DNA of 64,000 bases, from contig JAFQES010000008.1 in assembly GCA_017398945.1 (NCBI GenBank), forward strand, positions 15,565-79,564. Reading direction: 5' to 3'. Shown here piece by piece: positions 23,392 through 61,675 of this stretch (positions are counted from its first letter, which is position 1; every line of letters starts with the position of its first letter). Source of the DNA: Bacilli bacterium (GTDB lineage Bacteria; Bacillota_I; Bacilli_A; RF39; UBA660). The position numbers were made by a program, and so were the translations under genes. The notes under the pieces were generated by a model. It was not told where the DNA came from. It saw only the letters and a list, made by a program, of their open reading frames with translations, and ran no database searches.

Positions 23392-23397
23392 AAAAAT

Positions 23398-23578
23398 GCC
23401 TGAGAAGAGTAGTTTGTTTTATATAAAACCGACTAAGATAAAATATAGGGAATCTAATTGGTGTATTGTGTTGAAGACTGATCCATTAAGTGAATCAGAA
23501 TCCTAATATGCATCATGTGATGCCCACCTCGCGAGAGCGGGTTTTTATCACTGACAAACTCCTTCTTGGGTTTTTATT
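23398..23578 (+). ncRNA. ssrS: Candidate 6S RNA (ssrS / bsrA-like) in the aspS-side to tcdA intergenic slot
   Basis: About 180 nt with its own promoter. The 5' end CCTGAGAAG..TTTGT (23399-23417) pairs with the 3' end ACAAA..CTTCTTGGG (23554-23570). A second helix pairs ATAAAACCG (23423-23431) with CGGGTTTTTAT (23538-23548). There is a large internal region with an apical hairpin (CTGAT/ATCAG, 23478-23498) and a U-tract at 23571-23578. B. subtilis 6S-1 (bsrA) is encoded in the aspS-yrvM(tcdA) intergenic region. Confidence 0.5.
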
Positions 23579-24283: not shown

Positions 24284-25477
24284 TTATTTGGTAAATTCTT
24301 GATGAATCTTATTTATATTATTTTCATATTTATTATTAGCTGGATGATAATATTTTTTATTTTTAATCTTATCTGGTAAATATTGTTGCTTTACATAACT
24401 ATTTGGATAATTATGGGGATACAAATAATCTATGCTATGGGTTTTAATGTGATTAGGAACTTGCCCAGTATTTCCTTTTTCTAAATCTTCTAAAACTGCA
24501 TTCAAAGCTATATGAGCACTATTACTTTTAGGAGATAAAGCCATCTCAGTCACAATAGTACCTAAAGGAATTCTGGCTTCTGGTAACCCAACTAATTCAC
24601 TAGCTGAAATAGCTGCCATAATCTTAGGACCAATACCAGGATTAGCTAAACCAATATCTTCATAAGCAATTACTGATAAACGTCTATAGATACTATCTAA
24701 ATCGCCACCTTTAATTAACTTTCCCAGGTAATATAATGAAGCATCAACATCACTACCACGAATCGACTTTTGTAAAGCACTTAAAATATCATAGTGATTA
24801 TCTTCATCATTATCAAAAGAAAAGTTAGCTTTACTTGAAATTGTTTTTAATAAATCAATATCTATACGTTTATCAGAAGAAGAGTAGTAAGCTACTTCTA
24901 AAGTATTTAAAGCATTTCTTAAATCTCCTCCGGCATGATAAGTAATATATTTAATTGCATCACCATCAATTTGACAATCAGGTAAAGCTTTAGCCCCTTT
25001 TAAAATACCGTCTTCGATATCTTCATCATTTAAATCATGTAATTCAAATATTTGGCATCTGCTTCTAATCGCTGGATTTATTTTAAAATATGGATTAGAT
25101 GTAGTTAAACCTATCAAAATAATTAAGCCAGATTCAATATGAGGAAGCAGTATATCTTGTTTATCTTTATTCATTCGATGAATTTCATCAACCACCAATA
25201 TTAATTCACCATACATTGCAGCTTCTTTTATAGCAATATCAAAATCACTTTTATTATTAATTGTAGCATTTAAAAAACGATGATGAATATCAAGCTCACT
25301 AACAATCGCCTGAGCAATACTTGTTTTACCAATACCAGGTCGACCATACAAAATCATCGAAAATAATTTCTTATTTTTAATCATATTACTAATAACTTTA
25401 TTTTCTCCAACTAAATGTTTCTGACCAATTACTTCGCTTAAAGATTTTGGTCTTAGTTCATTTGATAAAAGCTTCAT
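24284..25477 (-). CDS. rarA: Replication-associated recombination protein A (AAA+ ATPase)
   Basis: LRPKSLSEVIGQKHL, Walker A LYGRPGIGKTS, Walker B LVVDEIHR, NPA..SRC, YHYD..SA..KS.RGSD.DA..YYL, GLPE. Confidence 0.92.
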   Translation of the reverse strand: MKLLSNELRPKSLSEVIGQKHLVGENKVISNMIKNKKLFSMILYGRPGIGKTSIAQAIVSELDIHHRFLNATINNKSDFDIAIKEAAMYGELILVVDEIHRMNKDKQDILLPHIESGLIILIGLTTSNPYFKINPAIRSRCQIFELHDLNDEDIEDGILKGAKALPDCQIDGDAIKYITYHAGGDLRNALNTLEVAYYSSSDKRIDIDLLKTISSKANFSFDNDEDNHYDILSALQKSIRGSDVDASLYYLGKLIKGGDLDSIYRRLSVIAYEDIGLANPGIGPKIMAAISASELVGLPEARIPLGTIVTEMALSPKSNSAHIALNAVLEDLEKGNTGQVPNHIKTHSIDYLYPHNYPNSYVKQQYLPDKIKNKKYYHPANNKYENNINKIHQEFTK

Positions 25478-25558
25478 AAAATCACCTTAAATTATTATAA
25501 CAAATAATTCTTGTTTTACCAAATTATGTTTAATATAATAAAGATGAGGATTGATTAC

Positions 25559-26434
25559 ATGAAAGAGTTAGAAAAATATCTTGATTATTTACGATTCGAA
25601 AGAAAATTATCAAATAATACAATTGCATCTTATGAAAACGATTTATTAATGCTATATAATACATTAAATAAACCTTTTACAAGCATCACAACATCAGATA
25701 TAAGAGATTACTTAGTAAAATCTAATCAAAAAAGCGATCGTACAAGAGCTCACAATATAACCGTATTTAATAATTTTTATACTTTTTTAGTATCAGAAAA
25801 TATAATGGCTAAAAATCCATGCGAAGATATATCTCAACCAAAATTAACTAAAAAACTTCCTAAATACCTTACTATAGAAGAAGTAGATAAACTATTAGAT
25901 ATTAAATTAAATACACCTTTAGATTATCGTAATAAAGCGATGTTAGAACTATTATATGCAACCGGTGTTAGAATAAGTGAACTTCTTGATTTAAAATTAA
26001 GCGATATTGATTTAGAAGAAGCTTTTATTAGAGTAATAGGAAAGGGTGACAAACAAAGAATAGTTCCCATGGGAGATATTGCAATTAAATACTTAAAAAT
26101 GTATCTTTTAGAAAACCGTAATTTTTTAATAAAGAAAAAATCTAGTGAATATGTATTCTTAAATAATTATGGAAATCAAATGACTAGACAAGGTTTCTTT
26201 AAAATACTAAAAAAACAGTGCCTTATAAGCGGAATTAAGCAAGATATTAGTCCACATACTCTAAGACATTCTTTCGCTTCACATTTGCTAAATAATGGGG
26301 CAGATTTAAGAGTAATTCAAGAACTTTTAGGACATACTGATATTTCTACAACCCAAATATATACACATTTATCTACAGATAAATTAAAAAGTGATTATAA
26401 AGCACATCCCCATCAAAAAAAGGAACATAATTAA
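25559..26434 (+). CDS. xerD: Tyrosine site-specific recombinase XerD/XerC type
   Basis: YLDYLRFERKLSNNTIASYENDL, ELLYATGVRISEL, GKGDKQRIVP, HTLRHSFASHLL..GADLR.IQELLGH..ISTTQIYTH. GAGGA SD before ATG 25559. Confidence 0.88.
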   Translation: MKELEKYLDYLRFERKLSNNTIASYENDLLMLYNTLNKPFTSITTSDIRDYLVKSNQKSDRTRAHNITVFNNFYTFLVSENIMAKNPCEDISQPKLTKKLPKYLTIEEVDKLLDIKLNTPLDYRNKAMLELLYATGVRISELLDLKLSDIDLEEAFIRVIGKGDKQRIVPMGDIAIKYLKMYLLENRNFLIKKKSSEYVFLNNYGNQMTRQGFFKILKKQCLISGIKQDISPHTLRHSFASHLLNNGADLRVIQELLGHTDISTTQIYTHLSTDKLKSDYKAHPHQKKEHN

Positions 26435-26452
26435 CGTTCCTTTTGTTTTTTA
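26417..26452. terminator. Bidirectional terminator between xerD and the small basic ORF
   Basis: aaaaaaaggaac-ataattaac-gttcct-tttgtttttt: a 6-bp GC-containing stem flanked by an A-run and a T-run. Confidence 0.45.
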
Positions 26453-26457
26453 AATAA

Positions 26458-26613
26458 CTATTTACTGTTGTTATTACGTTTATTAGCATTACTTCTGCTA
26501 CTATTATTCTTGCTATTTCTAGATTCTTGTTGTTTAGAAGATCTTTCATTAGCACGAGAATTATTATTTCTAGCATTAGCCTTGCTATTATTATTTCTTG
26601 AACTATTATTCAT
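26458..26613 (-). CDS. Unannotated 51-aa highly basic Asn/Ser/Arg-rich low-complexity protein
   Basis: GGAGG SD 7 nt upstream of ATG (26613). Translation: MNNSSRNNNSKANARNNNSRANERSSKQQESRNSKNNSSRSNANKRNNNSK. Contains RNNNS[KR]AN repeats. Below the 60-aa ORF-track cutoff. A terminator follows. Confidence 0.55.
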   Translation of the reverse strand: MNNSSRNNNSKANARNNNSRANERSSKQQESRNSKNNSSRSNANKRNNNSK

Positions 26614-26689
26614 AATCTTACCTCCTACTTATATTATGGTAAGAATTTAATTAATAATGCGATATAAATAGTGGTAATAATTGGCTAAT

Positions 26690-27094
26690 TTATTCTGGTT
26701 TAACACGTATTTTATAATGTTTTGCTCTAAAGCAGTAATCCGGATAGTCTTCCCAAGAAGGTATTAATATCCCTCCATTATTTAGAGCCACTTTAGATGA
26801 AGCTTTATTTACCGCTACTATATATAATTCTAGTAAATCATCTTGATATATATTATACATTAATCTTTTTAATAAGCCTAATGCATCTGTAGCAATATGC
26901 ATTTTTTGGTATTGAGGAAAAACAGAATACATGACTTCATTATTCATTTCTGGATCAAAACCAATCGTCCCAACAACTTCATTTGTCTTAAGTAAAATAA
27001 TATTATAAATTTTTCTCATAGTGCTACTAGATTTGTGCGATAAAACTAGAGCAATACGATCATCATTTATTATATAAGCATCATTACTTTCCAT
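26690..27094 (-). CDS. GNAT-family N-acetyltransferase-like protein
   Basis: 134 aa. IGF...V.P.YQ..HIATDALGLL motif-A-like segment and NKASSKVALNNGG, typical of the RimJ/RimL-type GNAT C-terminus. Confidence 0.5.
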   Translation of the reverse strand: MESNDAYIINDDRIALVLSHKSSSTMRKIYNIILLKTNEVVGTIGFDPEMNNEVMYSVFPQYQKMHIATDALGLLKRLMYNIYQDDLLELYIVAVNKASSKVALNNGGILIPSWEDYPDYCFRAKHYKIRVKPE

Positions 27095-27121
27095 AAAAAA
27101 TCCCCCAAGTAGATACTATTG

Positions 27122-27154
27122 TAACATAAAAATTATATGTTTTCATGAAATTTA
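27122..27154 (+). repeat. Direct repeat copy 1 (33 nt, 32/33 identical to copy 2)
   Basis: taacataaaaattatatgttttcatgaaattta. Contains the imperfect palindrome AACATA-N7-TATGTT. Confidence 0.9.
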
Positions 27155-27191
27155 ACAATTATTATATTTTTATAAAAAGCTATTTGTTTGC

Positions 27192-27220
27192 TTGTTTTAA
27201 AAATATATCTGTAGTATATT
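27192..27220 (+). promoter_or_regulatory. Candidate promoter of the small-peptide mRNA
   Basis: TTGTTT (27192-27197), 17 nt spacer, TATATT (27215-27220). The predicted start is just before the 5' helix arm at 27229. Confidence 0.4.
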
Positions 27221-27228
27221 AGTTACTA

Positions 27229-27460
27229 GGAAATACTAACTGTTGAGTACTTGCCAAACTTCAAAAGAAGGGTGGCTTGATATTATGAAGAGAAAAGATC
27301 TATTAATCTCATTTCTAATACTAATTATCATTTTATTAATAGTCTCTTTAATGATTCTATGCATAAAAAAATAGTACTCAATCCGAAGAATAAGTACTTA
27401 AACAATTAACTTGGGCAAGTACTCAACAAGCGAAAGTTAAGTATTTCCCATTTTTATTTT
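27229..27460 (+). other. Small-peptide mRNA with a 5'/3' long-range helix and a terminal U-tract
   Basis: gttgagtacttgcc (27242-27255) is perfectly complementary to ggcaagtactcaac (27414-27427). ggaaatactaac (27229-27240) pairs with gttaagtatttcc (27436-27448) with one bulge. tttttatttt follows at 27451-27460. Confidence 0.6.
27285..27374 (+). CDS. 29-aa hydrophobic peptide, type I toxin-like
   Basis: MKRKDLLISFLILIIILLIVSLMILCIKK: charged ends and a single TM helix. SD-like GAAGGGTGG lies about 10 nt upstream. Below the ORF-track cutoff. Confidence 0.5.
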   Translation: MKRKDLLISFLILIIILLIVSLMILCIKK

Positions 27461-27480
27461 ATGCAAGATTTCTTTCTTAC
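27365..27480 (-). ncRNA. Candidate cis-antisense RNA (antitoxin-like) overlapping the 3' end of the peptide mRNA
   Basis: Minus-strand promoter: TTGTCA (27515-27510), 17 nt spacer, TACTAT (27492-27487). Minus-strand terminator: AGTACT-tatt-C(UUCG)G-attg-AGTACT hairpin (27373-27398) followed by U7 (plus-strand A-run 27365-27371). Confidence 0.4.
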
Positions 27481-27536
27481 ATACTAATAGTATCATAACT
27501 TTACTATTTTGACAAGTAAAGCATTTTAAATAAAAA

Positions 27537-27569
27537 TAACATAAAAATTATATGTTTTCATAAAATTTA
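27537..27569 (+). repeat. Direct repeat copy 2, immediately upstream of the zupT SD
   Basis: taacataaaaattatatgttttcataaaattta, 415 bp from copy 1. Confidence 0.9.
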
Positions 27570-27580
27570 TTGGTGATTTT

Positions 27581-28336
27581 ATGAGACTTATAGCTGCATT
27601 ACTTATTTCAACAATAGCTGGTTTTGCTACCTTAATTGGAGGATTACTATCCTATTTAAAAATATCAAAAGAGAATATTAATAAATTTATAACTTTTTGT
27701 TTAAGTTTTTCATTAGCAATTATGTTAAGTCTAAGTGTTTTTGAACTAATACCTGAAACTTTTATTACTTTAATTAAAAGTTATAAGTTAGATTTAACAT
27801 TATTAATTATAGGAATAGTATTCTTACTAGGAGTAGGGCTGATCTTGATATTGAATAAAATTATCAGTAAATTATCATCAAATACTAATAATTTATATAA
27901 ACTAGGTATTTTAAATATGATTGCTTTAATGGCTCATAATCTTCCCGAAGGAATTGCAACTTTTATGTCATCTTATAATGATATAAGTCTTGGAATTAAA
28001 ATAGCAATAGCCATAATGCTTCATAATATACCTGAAGGTATAAGTATAGCCATACCAATATATTATGCTACCAAAAGCCGTAAAAAAGCTTTAAAAATGA
28101 CTGCTATTTCTAGTTTAGTAGAACCACTTGGAGCAATTTTATGTTACATGTTTTTAAAAGATTATATTAATGATACTTCAATAGGGATAATTTTAACATT
28201 AGTAGCGGGAATAATGATAACACTAGCCATTCACGAACTATTACCTGAAGCAAAAAAATATAATGAAGAAAAAATTTTGTCGTTAGGAATTATTACTGGA
28301 GTTATAATTATGATAATAAATATATTTATATTATAA
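27581..28336 (+). CDS. zupT: ZIP-family zinc transporter
   Basis: 8-TM protein with the paired motifs AHNLPEGIATF and LHNIPEGISIA, and HELLPEA. Confidence 0.88.
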   Translation: MRLIAALLISTIAGFATLIGGLLSYLKISKENINKFITFCLSFSLAIMLSLSVFELIPETFITLIKSYKLDLTLLIIGIVFLLGVGLILILNKIISKLSSNTNNLYKLGILNMIALMAHNLPEGIATFMSSYNDISLGIKIAIAIMLHNIPEGISIAIPIYYATKSRKKALKMTAISSLVEPLGAILCYMFLKDYINDTSIGIILTLVAGIMITLAIHELLPEAKKYNEEKILSLGIITGVIIMIINIFIL

Positions 28337-28350
28337 GAGGGGAGTAGTTT

Positions 28351-28956
28351 ATGAAAAAAAGAGTAGGGGTAATACTACGAACAGAAAAAATAAATGACGT
28401 ATTAAAACATTATGTCAGAAATAGTATGTTAGAAAAGCTTACTAAATATGATATAGAAATAATTTGTATTCCAATAATTAATAATTTAGAAAATATTTAT
28501 AGTATAATTGATACCTGTGATGGAATTATTTTCCCTGGCGGAGACGATGTAGTAGCTAAAGATCTTGAAATATTAAATTATGTATATAAAAATAACACCC
28601 CTACTTTAGGTATTTGTTTAGGAATGCAAGAAATGGCTATTTTTAAAAATGGTATGATGATTGATTTAAATGACGATAAGCATAATATGAAAGATAATGA
28701 GACTCATGAAGTAATAATTGATATATCATCTAAATTATATGAAATAATTGGTAAAGAAAAGATTACAGTTAATTCAAGACATCATAGTATTATTTCTAAA
28801 ACAGATTTAAATATTAGCGCACATTCAACTGATAATATTATTGAAGCTGTAGAAGATCCATCTAAAGATTTTTTTGTTGGCGTTCAATGGCATCCTGAAG
28901 ATTTAGAAGTAGAAGAGACATATTTACTATTAAATTATTTTATAAATTGCTTATGA
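28351..28956 (+). CDS. Class I glutamine amidotransferase / peptidase C26 (gamma-glutamyl hydrolase, PuuD-like)
   Basis: IIFPGGDD, nucleophile elbow LGICLGMQEM, VGVQWHPE His/Glu motif. Confidence 0.8.
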   Translation: MKKRVGVILRTEKINDVLKHYVRNSMLEKLTKYDIEIICIPIINNLENIYSIIDTCDGIIFPGGDDVVAKDLEILNYVYKNNTPTLGICLGMQEMAIFKNGMMIDLNDDKHNMKDNETHEVIIDISSKLYEIIGKEKITVNSRHHSIISKTDLNISAHSTDNIIEAVEDPSKDFFVGVQWHPEDLEVEETYLLLNYFINCL

Positions 28957-29004
28957 ATTGAAAGTTTACATAATATATATTATGCGAAGTTCAATTTTAA
29001 TAAA

Positions 29005-29028
29005 AAGTGATGAATAACTTCATCACTT
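29005..29028. terminator. Bidirectional terminator between the convergent amidotransferase and HTH genes
   Basis: 10-bp stem aagtgatgaa (29005-29014) / ttcatcactt (29019-29028), 4-nt loop. Confidence 0.6.
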
Positions 29029-29032
29029 TAAT

Positions 29033-29815
29033 TTAAACTTTTCTAGATTGAATCTCCGCAATTTTTTCAAATACTTCAGCTGCATTAGATTCATTGATTT
29101 CTGTATAACCAAGTTCACGTAACGCTTGAACTTTTGTAGTATTTAATTGTTGCGTACGACTTAGTTTTTCTTCATTTTTTTGTTCGATCTCTTGAACAAA
29201 TCTCTTATGGCTTTCAGCTAATTTACTACGGCTAGCTCCCCCATTATTATATAAAGTTAGAGCAGAGTACAAGATTCCTTCAAAAATAAATTGTTTATCT
29301 TCATCAAATTTAAATTCATCTGGTGATATAAATCCAGTTGTTTTTGACATATATCCAAAGATATATTTTATTTCTGGAACATTATCTAAAGATTGTAACA
29401 TATGATATAAATATAATAGGGCAAAATAGTTTTCTTTTTTTCTAGAACTCTCCCCTTCTAAAAGCTTTTCTTTAAGTAGGTAAGTTATATCTGCAATTAA
29501 GTTTTGTTCCTCTTTATTAAGACCATTTAAATCAAAATAGCTATCAAAATCAGAAGCTGATTTAACACCTTGATTTAATCTGCTTTCTACAGCCATTAAA
29601 TATTCAGTTGTAACTTTAATAGAGTTAATACTCCCCTCTTCTCCGTCTTCAATATCAAGTAATTTTAAAAGAAGTATTTTCTTTTCTTTTGGCCATTTAT
29701 TTAAATCTTCTAACTCTAAATAGTTATAAACCATTTGACGAGAAACGCCTAAATATTTAGCAAGTCTTACTTTAGAAACCCCTAATTCTTGTAATAAACT
29801 ATTTATTTTTTTCAT
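29033..29815 (-). CDS. XRE-type helix-turn-helix protein with a large helical C-terminal domain
   Basis: N-terminal HTH LQELGVSKVRLAKYLGVSRQMVYNYLE. The remaining roughly 220 aa are unrecognised. Confidence 0.7.
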   Translation of the reverse strand: MKKINSLLQELGVSKVRLAKYLGVSRQMVYNYLELEDLNKWPKEKKILLLKLLDIEDGEEGSINSIKVTTEYLMAVESRLNQGVKSASDFDSYFDLNGLNKEEQNLIADITYLLKEKLLEGESSRKKENYFALLYLYHMLQSLDNVPEIKYIFGYMSKTTGFISPDEFKFDEDKQFIFEGILYSALTLYNNGGASRSKLAESHKRFVQEIEQKNEEKLSRTQQLNTTKVQALRELGYTEINESNAAEVFEKIAEIQSRKV

Positions 29816-29891
29816 TATAATACCCACTTTCAAAAAACAAAACAATATTTACATTAATTATAATAAACTTAACACTTATTTGTCAATTGTT

Positions 29892-31016
29892 TTATGGTAA
29901 ATACCACAAGTCATTATTATTCTTCATAACTTTCTTTATAAAGCCACAACCTAAACAATAATCTCCGCTATATAATACACAAGCTTGCCCAGGTGTAACA
30001 GATTTAACTTTTTCGGGATATGATACTAATATTTCCGAATCATTTAAATGTTTTAAACTTACAGGATAATCTTCGCCACGATAACGAAATTTTGCTGTAC
30101 AATTCTCCGGTAATTTATCAGTTAAAAGATTTATGTTATCAATAATACAGGAATCGCTATATAGATATTCTTCATCATTATCTTTAGCAAAAGCCACATA
30201 TAAAATATTTTTTGCCACATCCTTACCACAAACATAATGGCGATTTTCATTACCGCTTATACCAACACCACGTCTTTGACCAATTGTATAATTCATTAAA
30301 CCGGTATGGCACCCAATAACTTCTTTCGTACTAACATCAATTATGTCTCCTGGATTAGGTTTTAAATAACTACTTATAAATTTTTGATAATTACGTTCTC
30401 CAATAAAACATATTCCTGTTGAATCTTTTTTACTAGCTACAGGAATTTCATTATCTAAAGCTATTTGTCTAATTTCACTTTTTAAATAGTCTCCAACAGG
30501 AAATAATACATCTTTAAATTGACTTACAGGAACATCAGCTAAGAAATAACTTTGATCTTTTGATAAGTCTTTAGCTCGCATTAATTTTCCATCACAAATT
30601 TTAGCATAATGACCTGTGGCAATTTTATCAGCCCCCAGTCTTTTAGCTTCTTTAATAAATAAATCAAATTTAATAAACTTATTGCATAGTAAATCAGGAT
30701 TTGGAGTACGTCCTTTTTTTAATTCTTCTAAAAAATAAGTAAAAACATAATCCCAATATTCTTTTATAAAATCAACTCTTTTTAAAGGTATATTTAAAGT
30801 ATTACAAACAGCTAAAGCATCATTATAATCTTTTTCTTGAGGACATATATTTTCCTCCTGAATTTTCATTCCTTCACCATCATTATTTAGAGTAGAATCC
30901 CAATTACGCATAAATAAACCGATTACATCGTAACCTTGTTTTTTTAGTAAATAAGCAGCAACTGCACTATCTACTCCCCCACTCATTCCTATAACTACTT
31001 TTTCCATAGACATCAC
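29892..31016 (-). CDS. mnmA: tRNA-specific 2-thiouridylase
   Basis: PP-loop VIGMSGGVDSAVAAYLL, GRTPNPDLLCN..IKF, ATGHYA, KDQSYFL, KKDSTGICFIGE. The start may be M4. Confidence 0.93.
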   Translation of the reverse strand: MMSMEKVVIGMSGGVDSAVAAYLLKKQGYDVIGLFMRNWDSTLNNDGEGMKIQEENICPQEKDYNDALAVCNTLNIPLKRVDFIKEYWDYVFTYFLEELKKGRTPNPDLLCNKFIKFDLFIKEAKRLGADKIATGHYAKICDGKLMRAKDLSKDQSYFLADVPVSQFKDVLFPVGDYLKSEIRQIALDNEIPVASKKDSTGICFIGERNYQKFISSYLKPNPGDIIDVSTKEVIGCHTGLMNYTIGQRRGVGISGNENRHYVCGKDVAKNILYVAFAKDNDEEYLYSDSCIIDNINLLTDKLPENCTAKFRYRGEDYPVSLKHLNDSEILVSYPEKVKSVTPGQACVLYSGDYCLGCGFIKKVMKNNNDLWYLP

Positions 31017-61390: not shown

Positions 61391-61669
61391 AAAAAAACCC
61401 GTTTCATCCCAAACATAAGGACGAATACGGGTATTTCGCGGTGCCACCTTAATTTATTACTAAAGGTTATTATACCTTTTATTTTAGTAATCTCTTTTGC
61501 TCTATTAAGCATTAGCAATATGATAACGGTTTGCATCCGAACTAGTCTACTAAGATAATTCCTTTCGGCAGTTTGCTCTAAGGTGTTCTTTCACAATATC
61601 CCTATAATCAGTTCACACTATACCTGATTCACTCGTATAAGCAATAAGGTTACTTTTCCTCTTCATCGC
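61391..61669 (-). promoter_or_regulatory. T-box riboswitch leader (Asn specifier) controlling asnA
   Basis: Minus strand: GCGATGAAGAGG...AGTA stem-I base. GAA-AG-AAC-A specifier context (AAC = plus 61585-61587). T-box core AAGGTGGCACCGCG (61450-61437). Terminator ACCCGTATTCGTCC...GGATGAAACGGGTTTTTTT (61433-61391). Confidence 0.85.
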
Positions 61670-61675
61670 AAAAAC

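Follow-up and report, generated by a model that had tools for sequence, protein, structure and literature searches.

A cassette of ~330 bp, measured from promoter to promoter, lies between a GNAT acetyltransferase gene and the ZIP-family zinc transporter gene zupT in a 64,000-nucleotide stretch of contig JAFQES010000008.1 (assembly GCA_017398945.1, Bacilli bacterium). This stretch is referred to below as the window, and the cassette is probably one copy of a previously undescribed, chromosomal family of type I toxin-antitoxin (TA)-like loci in uncultured low-GC gut Bacilli. One strand is predicted to specify an mRNA for a 29-aa hydrophobic peptide, with 5′ and 3′ ends that pair in a long clamp, and the other strand a convergent antisense RNA that covers the 3′ end of this message (Table 1). 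We regard it as very likely that the anatomy has been read correctly, i.e., as two transcription units, a clamp, and a coding open reading frame (ORF), and we consider toxin-antitoxin behavior of the cassette likely. The anatomy lends good support to the label “type I TA” but does not demonstrate it. In silico support is provided by the two transcription units, the clamp, a hairpin over the Shine-Dalgarno (SD) sequence, the coding ORF, a multicopy and tandem distribution, and an insertion polymorphism.

The architecture had been described in an earlier note on this DNA, and every element was found where that note had placed it. The length of the GNAT-zupT gap, given there as 486 bp, follows from the gene starts at 27094 (minus strand) and 27581 (plus strand), and no gene was called across the gap in the window. 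The comparisons below support the view that an architecture read from one sequence holds across a family whose discovery did not depend on the clamp, the ORF, or the promoters.

For the protein search, the query was the 43-aa TTG-extended form of the ORF, the 29-aa peptide being too short. It returned seven clusters sharing the peptide core, and the neighbors of the cassette on the contigs of these clusters are unrelated (SASP/ThiI, AspS, radical-SAM/SDR, GDPD, and a resolvase fragment). A scan with a peptide pattern over one genome per GTDB species gave at least seven true loci among 599 matched stretches, the rest being of low complexity, and these loci are all in metagenome-assembled genomes (MAGs) whose labels read uncultured Bacilli or Bacillales and whose origins include rabbit and water deer. 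Metagenomes were searched with a 24-nt pattern from a conserved stretch just 3′ of the clamp, which overlaps neither the clamp nor the ORF nor either promoter. At least 120 metagenome loci were found in this way, and nhmmer confirmed the cassette in 116 of 120. Altogether, nhmmer returned at least 159 hits (at least 108 full length and at least 90 unique), and the resulting family size of at least 90 distinct cassettes is a lower bound. The sources are gut and rumen metagenomes and “uncultured Bacilli” MAGs. At least 19 loci have two copies on the same strand, many of them directly in tandem and with divergent peptides (e.g., L020 and L023).

Some individual loci differ in their context. Among assemblies of the same strain as the window, several break within the ORF. 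Five independent assemblies with an identical zupT (L002 to L006) end inside the cassette, at positions corresponding to ~27246-27332 of the window, and one of these (L005) has a variant 5′ half with the SD sequence AAGGAGG and a peptide beginning MKKKDLLISFLIIIII…. The breaks would fit either a repeat-induced failure of assembly or strain-level presence and absence of the cassette, and the variant hints at paralogues or heterogeneity among strains. In L017 to L019 (~340 to 400 nt past the peptide start) and in L073, cassettes are directly beside tRNA-like sequences, as judged by eye; mobile DNA often integrates at tRNA genes.

The clamp joins the two ends of the predicted toxin mRNA. Its arms (27229-27255 and 27414-27448) pair, as the earlier note had claimed, over 14 perfect bp plus 12 bp with one bulged base; the perfect pairs form the inner helix, and in the outer helix 12 bases of the 5′ arm face 13 bases of the 3′ arm. 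Folding of the 228-nt plus-strand RNA, a check proposed in that note, gave −56.5 kcal/mol, compared with −33.8 ± 3.9 kcal/mol for shuffled sequences (z = −5.83; 0 of 200 shuffles as low), and the clamp is in both the minimum free energy (MFE) and the centroid structure. The clamp 14-mer, GGCAAGTACTCAAC, would be expected 0.11 times per 64 kb with up to two mismatches allowed. Among the unique family members, 87 of 90 have the clamp in the MFE structure (at least 19 of the first 30 nt paired with the last 55 nt), and shuffling of the 5′ 30 nt removes it from the MFE structure in most members.

Covariation was assessed in an alignment (A4) of 59 representatives with <88% mutual identity. RNAalifold recovered the inner clamp helix from this alignment, with compensatory changes in 11 of 13 pairs. 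A structure of 39 pairs (clamp, SD hairpin, and the hairpin that follows the stop codon), taken from the window's own fold and mapped onto the alignment, was paired in 87.7% of cells, compared with 36 to 45% when the partners were slid by one to three columns. Its covariation score was 0.428, compared with 0.07 to 0.12 for slid partners and 0.222 for shuffles, none of 500 shuffles reaching the observed value. Two-sided changes were seen in 10 of 13 and 12 of 14 pairs of the clamp helices (22 of 27 pairs, each in at least 1 of the 59 representatives), and divergent subfamilies swap GAGTACTTGCC/GGCAAGTACTC for, e.g., GAGTGTCGTCC/GGCGACATTCAC, with pairing retained. The complementary arms, whose fate in related loci had been named as a test, are conserved far beyond chance among the at least 90 distinct cassettes and covary in the 59 representatives. 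On the evidence of these alignments, the clamp is real and under selection. Chance complementarity in AT-rich intergenic DNA is excluded by the fold z score together with the family-wide covariation.

Part of the 5′ arm also has a second partner. The alternative pairing proposed between 27243-27251 and 27373-27381 does consist of 9 perfect bp; it is kept in 83% of the cells of the alignment and has a covariation score of 0.373, compared with ~0.08 for slid partners. The clamp and the alternative pairing both covary, and four segments therefore coevolve as two mutually complementary pairs. By analogy with aapA1 and hok, this four-segment pairing might represent a conserved alternative, possibly cotranscriptional, fold. 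Four segments in this region are centered on AGTACT (27243-27251, 27373-27381, 27392-27399, and 27417-27424) and can pair either as 1:4 with 2:3 or as 1:2 with 3:4. Segments 2 and 4 resemble each other, and the four-way complementarity persists in subfamilies with a nonpalindromic motif (GAGTGTC/GACACTC).

Both predicted promoters recur in the family. The toxin mRNA promoter proposed earlier, TTGTTT-17 nt-TATATT, is present at 27192-27197 and 27215-27220, with TTG (27192-27194) and TAtAnT (27215-27220) as the family-conserved positions. The antisense promoter, proposed as TTGTCA (27515-27510)-17 nt-TACTAT (27492-27487), was detected by a promoter scan, with a TG extension, and is conserved as TTGnnA (27515-27510)-17 nt-TGnTAnTAT (27495-27487). 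When TTGnnn-16 to 18 nt-TAnnnT was sought at the expected position, the toxin promoter matched in 72 of 90 members (17 of 90 shuffles) and the antisense promoter in 86 of 90 (4 of 90 shuffles), the latter with a 17-nt spacer in 82 members and the TG extension in 85. The mean number of matched consensus positions, out of 12, was 10.1 for the antisense promoter and 8.8 for the toxin promoter. Judged by these matches, the stronger promoter is that of the antisense RNA; a stronger antitoxin promoter is usual in type I systems. The U-tract reported 3′ of the clamp consists of T5 (27451-27455) and T4 (27457-27460) and starts two bases past the arm.

In one copy (L008), the promoter spacer is 13 nt. 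In the window, an 18-nt inverted repeat (27163-27207; 89% complementary, with a 9-nt gap) extends across the toxin promoter's −35 region, with the left arm lying outside the conserved cassette; the repeat may be a product of chance in AT-rich DNA or a junction feature.

The ORF between the clamp arms encodes the putative toxin MKRKDLLISFLILIIILLIVSLMILCIKK, which was confirmed as a hydrophobic 29-aa peptide with one transmembrane segment and is the most hydrophobic product of any small ORF in the window. Its SD sequence, GAAGGGUGG (27267-27275), is 9 nt from the ATG and falls within a local hairpin, the outer pairs of which involve GCC at 27253-27255, the same bases that close the clamp. In 89 of 90 members, at least four SD bases are paired with an upstream anti-SD sequence in the local MFE structure; in controls with the upstream part shuffled, the number of paired SD bases ranged from 0 to 7. 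The anti-SD/SD pairings used across the family are CUUC/GAAG, CUUUC/GAAAG, or CCUCC/GGAGG.

The strong SD sequence (GGAGG type), the start codon, and an ORF of mostly 24 to 32 aa are kept in 86 of 90 cassettes. In every family ORF found, the best 15-aa window has a Kyte-Doolittle value of at least 2.11 (median, 3.54). Single-nucleotide codon differences between related members are synonymous in 47% of cases in frame (912 of 1,947), compared with 19% and 13% in the other two frames. On the strength of this 2.5- to 3.6-fold enrichment, the family ORF is evolving as a coding sequence. The peptide subfamilies are strongly divergent (MKKKDLLISF…IKK, MKKRxYxIKLLRYI…VIKK, MSKKDFLIFFQT…, and MNKKDFLIL…), and common to all are a Lys-rich N terminus and one transmembrane segment, with a C-terminal KK being usual. 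The cassette thus has class-level features of type I TA systems, namely, a small (<60-aa) hydrophobic ORF with its own ribosome-binding site (RBS) and a structured mRNA with a sequestered SD sequence.

The A-run at the end of the ORF (27365-27371 in the window) differs between copies, being A6, A7, or A8 (L008, L011, L012 to L014, and L007). The frame is thereby shifted into C-terminally extended ORFs of 36 to 51 aa (P0003 to P0007), which run through the conserved terminator hairpin. Such variants might reflect the decay of copies, assembly errors in homopolymers, or phase variation.

On the opposite strand, an antisense RNA of ~115 nt over the 3′ clamp arm and the last codons had been proposed, and our prediction is similar, at ~116 nt (27480 to 27365). 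From the 59 representatives, RNAalifold predicted three stem-loops, i.e., SL1 (27480-27463), SL2 over the 3′ arm, and SL3, the terminator. The fold z score of a 124-nt minus-strand RNA is −4.24. The earlier note held that a UUCG hairpin followed by U7 exists on the minus strand only. This is true of the U-run and of additional G-U pairs but not of the stem itself, which, AGTACT being palindromic, is able to form on either strand. The post-stop hairpin (27373-27398) is nevertheless stabler on the minus strand in 67 of 90 members (median, −14.5 versus −12.0 kcal/mol). A U-run of at least 5 follows it on that strand in 75 of 90 members, and no T-run follows it on the plus strand among the 90; it is therefore assigned as the antisense terminator. 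The terminator hairpin carries the UUCG loop and has covarying pairs, including U-G, in the 59 representatives, and its U7 corresponds to the two terminal Lys codons of the toxin ORF. A local hairpin inside the 3′ arm also covaries. In 35 of 59 sequences, the plus-strand form of this hairpin contains a C·A mismatch that becomes a U·G pair when the minus strand is read, and from this pattern the hairpin is better read as antisense SL2 than as a feature of the mRNA.

The two predicted RNAs overlap by ~95 nt (~27365-27460), comprising the last two Lys codons and the stop codon, the terminator hairpin, the spacer, all of the 3′ clamp arm, and the greater part of the U-tract. Within the overlap, only two segments are predicted to be unpaired in both RNAs, namely, the internal loop of the clamp (27428-27435), with mean probabilities of being unpaired of 0.82 in the mRNA and 0.83 in the antisense RNA, and the spacer (27400-27413), with 0.66 and 0.57, respectively. 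In this model, these two segments are the likely nucleation sites of RNA pairing. A separate antisense gene with a predicted promoter and terminator, a further class-level feature of type I TA systems, is thus present at the sequence level.

The insertion polymorphism was revealed by a relative (L144) with the same gene order, a ZupT that is 96% identical, and a GNAT-zupT spacer of only 71 nt. The flanking window sequence matches L144 at 90% identity on one side (25001-27121) and at 92.7% on the other (27537-30000), and in L144 the two aligned segments are exactly contiguous. The difference at this site (L144 positions 2430-2500) is a clean 415-nt indel consisting of the cassette and one copy of a flanking direct repeat (46 nt, 85% identity, and 415-nt spacing), the sequence of which is single-copy in L144. 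Two further zupT-bearing relatives have no cassette in the DNA fetched around zupT, and two of the three cassette-free relatives have the same GNAT neighbor, 71 or 106 nt upstream. Long repeats beside the cassette are no general trait of the family, 54 of 88 cassettes being without any of at least 10 nt, and the indel may or may not reflect a specific insertion mechanism. A target duplication of 33 to 46 nt is unusual for known insertion mechanisms.

These comparisons bear on the possibility that the region acts on zupT in cis, as a regulatory leader or attenuator. The region is directly upstream of zupT and on the same strand, and its four mutually complementary segments are attenuator-like. 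However, the same cassette adjoins many unrelated genes, three relatives carry zupT without the cassette in the surrounding DNA that was fetched, and zupT in the window retains its native upstream sequence in the form of the right-hand repeat. With the site empty in relatives and the genomic contexts unrelated, a leader or attenuator is as good as refuted, and we give next to no credence to this explanation or to the chance complementarity considered above.

A discrete 415-nt insertion with a flanking direct repeat of 33 to 46 nt, present in many copies at different intergenic sites and most strongly conserved in its RNA structure and noncoding stretches, could also be a mobile or repeated noncoding structured element (a miniature inverted-repeat transposable element [MITE]-like repeat or a pair of small RNAs) in which the ORF is incidental. 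This we regard as very improbable. An SD sequence, a start codon, and an ORF of ~24 to 32 aa are retained in nearly all cassettes (86 of 90) despite the divergence of the peptides, synonymous changes are enriched in frame, and every ORF found is hydrophobic. Moreover, most cassettes are without flanking repeats, and neither terminal inverted repeats nor a neighboring transposase gene was recognized, although these were not systematically searched for.

With regard to known systems, the closest likeness of the proposed TA cassette is in gene organization. In txpA/RatA, BsrE/G/H, YonT, and SprG, the antisense RNA extends over the mRNA 3′ end and the last part of the ORF (PMC8594479), and SR6 is a 3′-overlapping antisense RNA of 100 nt (PMC5848175). 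The resemblance to txpA/RatA and bsrG/SR4 suggested in the earlier note holds for this organization (PMC8594479): a small hydrophobic ORF, a convergent cis-antisense RNA of ~100 nt, sigma-A-type promoters, and an overlap at the mRNA 3′ end that includes the end of the ORF. It does not hold as homology, and the BsrG covariance model (RF01412) scored 11.4 bits against a cutoff of 55 bits (E = 4.8), which is chance level. Unlike the Bacillus subtilis systems, the family has peptides of 24 to 31 aa (compared with 38 to 59 aa for BsrG, TxpA, and YonT, BsrE being 30 aa), a 26-bp 5′/3′ clamp with a 3′ arm that is itself the antisense target, and an antisense terminator with a U-run that is the Lys codons of the toxin. 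In addition, the B. subtilis systems are prophage borne, whereas the cassettes described here are chromosomal intergenic insertions without phage hits.

The clamp finds its counterparts in Gram-negative systems. In aapA1 and hok, a 5′-3′ clamp silences the toxin mRNA and alternative (metastable) pairings occur; AapA1 is a 30-aa peptide, and aapA loci are chromosomal and multicopy (PMC5416894). Like hok/Sok of plasmid R1 and aapA1/IsoA1 of Helicobacter pylori, the cassette has a long-distance 5′-3′ lock on the mRNA, a sequestered SD sequence, and alternative pairings. In hok/Sok and aapA1/IsoA1, however, the antisense RNA targets the 5′ untranslated region or translation initiation region, and 3′ processing unmasks the SD sequence and the antisense target. 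Here, in contrast, the antisense promoter is downstream of the mRNA 3′ end, the overlap is at the 3′ clamp arm, and no SD unmasking is predicted by modeling of 3′ truncation. There was no match to HOK_GEF in a Pfam library whose model content is unconfirmed. Fst/RNAII (par of pAD1) and SprA1/SprA1as are closer in being Gram-positive and convergent, with an overlap at the 3′ end, membrane peptides of ~30 aa, and a 5′ structure that limits translation. In Fst and SprA1, however, the overlap excludes the ORF, and the functional interaction is outside the overlap, at 5′ repeats (PMC8594479). No match to Fst_toxin was found here in the same Pfam library, the content of which is similarly unconfirmed. 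Fst toxins have a conserved central Pro, which the peptides of this family do not have.

By sequence comparison, this is a new family within the known type I TA class, and no homology test placed it in a named family. A full-text literature search with the peptide strings, with T1TAdb and the candidate lists of Fozo et al. 2010 outside its scope, gave no match, and the family might conceivably be listed in those sources as an uncharacterized candidate.

We propose the following mechanism. A moderate sigma-A-type promoter would produce an mRNA of ~230 nt for a 29-aa single-pass membrane peptide, and during transcription the local anti-SD hairpin would hide the ribosome-binding site. Once the 3′ end has been made, the 26-bp clamp could form between the first 27 nt and the 35 nt just ahead of the U-tract, giving a compact, probably stable, and poorly translated message. 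The stronger convergent promoter, with its TG-extended −10 element, would supply an antisense RNA of ~116 nt that is fully complementary to the last ~95 nt of the mRNA. Pairing would most likely begin at the internal loop of the clamp and at the spacer and then extend to a long duplex. By analogy with txpA/RatA, bsrG/SR4, and yonT/SR6, the duplex might be cut by RNase III and the mRNA thereby removed, an action we would expect to be shared with the txpA/RatA and bsrG/SR4 types; a role for RNase III is indicated by one study (PMC3531473). If the supply of antisense RNA dropped, the peptide would be made and the membrane damaged.

Several results weigh against this mechanism and against the TA assignment as a whole. 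First, both transcripts, the toxicity of the peptide, its neutralization, the involvement of RNase III, and any 3′ processing are things that we infer only. Second, modeled SD accessibility was 0.24 for the full-length mRNA, 0.23 for the antisense-bound mRNA, and 0.26 for the 3′-truncated mRNA. This amounts to no change, and a translational effect of the clamp or the antisense RNA is therefore not supported by computation. Third, no canonical terminator for the toxin mRNA was found in a pattern-matching scan, and its 3′ end would rest on the clamp or on a weak local hairpin, followed by the T-run. Fourth, the peptide, which the earlier note had not recognized, indeed has no match to known toxin families: 12 diverse family peptides gave none at an E value of ≤10 in Pfam and NCBIfam, where models for Fst, Hok/Gef, Ldr, and Ibs would be expected (only spurious transmembrane matches below the cutoff), and the family peptides gave none in PHROGs. 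Rfam type I TA RNA families other than BsrG gave no hit at an E value of ≤10 in the region or at the gathering score in the whole window. Finally, further copies, which the earlier note had suggested seeking in the rest of the genome, were detected in other genomes and metagenomes, but nhmmer found no second copy in the 64-kb window, and there was no match in viral contigs, phage records, or plasmid records. A role in addiction on mobile elements is therefore unsupported. Because no change in SD accessibility is predicted, we can only infer the role of the clamp, which could be in stability, in blocking premature access of antisense RNA or ribosomes, or in 3′-end formation. A translational switch of the bsrG/SR4 or aapA1 kind is not claimed, thermodynamic modeling having predicted no effect on SD accessibility.

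All of the structural evidence is equally compatible with a nontoxic small membrane protein, e.g., a regulator or accessory subunit, whose expression is set by a cis-antisense RNA together with a structured mRNA and which has no TA behavior. The toxicity of the peptide is only putative, no copies were found in the plasmid, phage, and viral collections, and some copies with frameshifted, C-terminally extended ORFs persist. We nonetheless consider a nontoxic protein unlikely, as the copies are beside unrelated genes and have no conserved partner gene, tandem copies encode divergent peptides within one array, and the cassette is present or absent between close relatives. Two-layer translational silencing, as predicted here, with the antisense promoter apparently the stronger of the two, also argues against it. 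Features combined in this way characterize type I toxins but are uncommon among small proteins with housekeeping roles.

Annotation of type I TA systems is incomplete, as the toxins are very small and the antitoxins are not proteins but RNAs, and the known families are almost entirely from cultured Proteobacteria and a few Firmicutes. Gene callers miss or miscall the cassettes described here. As far as could be checked, the combination of a clamp, an anti-SD hairpin, and a 3′-overlapping antisense RNA has not been described before, and the family alignment, with its abundant compensatory changes, provides well-sampled material on it. A covariance model built from the family would improve the annotation of gut MAGs and would also account for assembly breaks at these loci. 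The 415-nt insertion with its long flanking duplication makes the spread of the cassette within chromosomes testable. Only tentatively, and with some doubt, do we put all parts together as a new and widespread type I TA family of gut Bacilli in which a hok/aapA1-style clamp is joined to a 3′-overlapping antitoxin acting on the clamp arm, within an insertion unit of ~380 nt that duplicates 33 to 46 bp of its target. If true, this would unite two regulatory designs previously seen only apart, and a unit of this kind would imply that type I TA loci can move by a mechanism so far undescribed for them.

Table 1. Predicted elements of the cassette and its surroundings, in window coordinates
Feature	Position	Strand	Basis or remark
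Toxin mRNA promoter, TTGTTT-17 nt-TATATT	27192-27220	+	TTG and TAnnnT conserved in family
Predicted toxin mRNA, ~230 nt	27229-27460	+	Inferred from promoter and T-run
Clamp 5′ arm, outer (27229-27240) and inner (27242-27255)	27229-27255	+	Complementarity, fold, covariation
SD-sequestering hairpin, GCC..CUUC-AAAA-GAAG..GGC	27253-27276	+	Local MFE
ORF of 29-aa peptide, putative toxin	27285-27374	+	Hydrophobicity, family coding signal
Clamp 3′ arm with 8-nt internal loop (27428-27435)	27414-27448	+	Complementarity, fold, covariation
T-run (T5 A T4), toxin mRNA end	27451-27460	+	T-run of at least 5 past 3′ arm in 88/90 members
Antisense promoter, TTGTCA (27515-27510)-17 nt-TGA-TACTAT (27495-27487)	27487-27515	−	Promoter scan
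Predicted antisense (antitoxin) RNA, ~116 nt	27365-27480	−	Ends inferred from promoter and terminator
Rho-independent antisense terminator, hairpin (27398-27373) and U7 (27371-27365)	27365-27398	−	Fold, family conservation
Spacer from post-stop hairpin to 3′ arm, candidate first-pairing site	27400-27413	.	Predicted single-stranded in both RNAs
Left copy of flanking direct repeat	27122-27167	.	First 33 nt near-identical to right copy
Right copy of flanking direct repeat, native zupT upstream region with RBS and ATG	27537-27582	.	Single-copy in L144
GNAT acetyltransferase gene	26690-27094	−	Start at 27094
zupT, ZIP-family zinc transporter gene	27581-28336	+	Start at 27581

The window has a G+C content of 27% and is identical to part of one ENA metagenome scaffold. 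No tRNA genes were found in its 64 kb. Between the genes for an XerD-like recombinase and the GNAT protein, a 51-aa ORF on the minus strand (26458-26613) encodes a product composed almost entirely of N, S, R, K, and A, and gene calls at the corresponding position in L001, L144, L146, and L148 likewise include a small ORF (45 to 52 aa). Elsewhere in the window, two RNAs that fit a Firmicute were recognized at Rfam gathering scores, namely, a 6S RNA (62 bits; 23394-23576, plus strand) and a T-box leader (103 bits; 61414-61675, minus strand).

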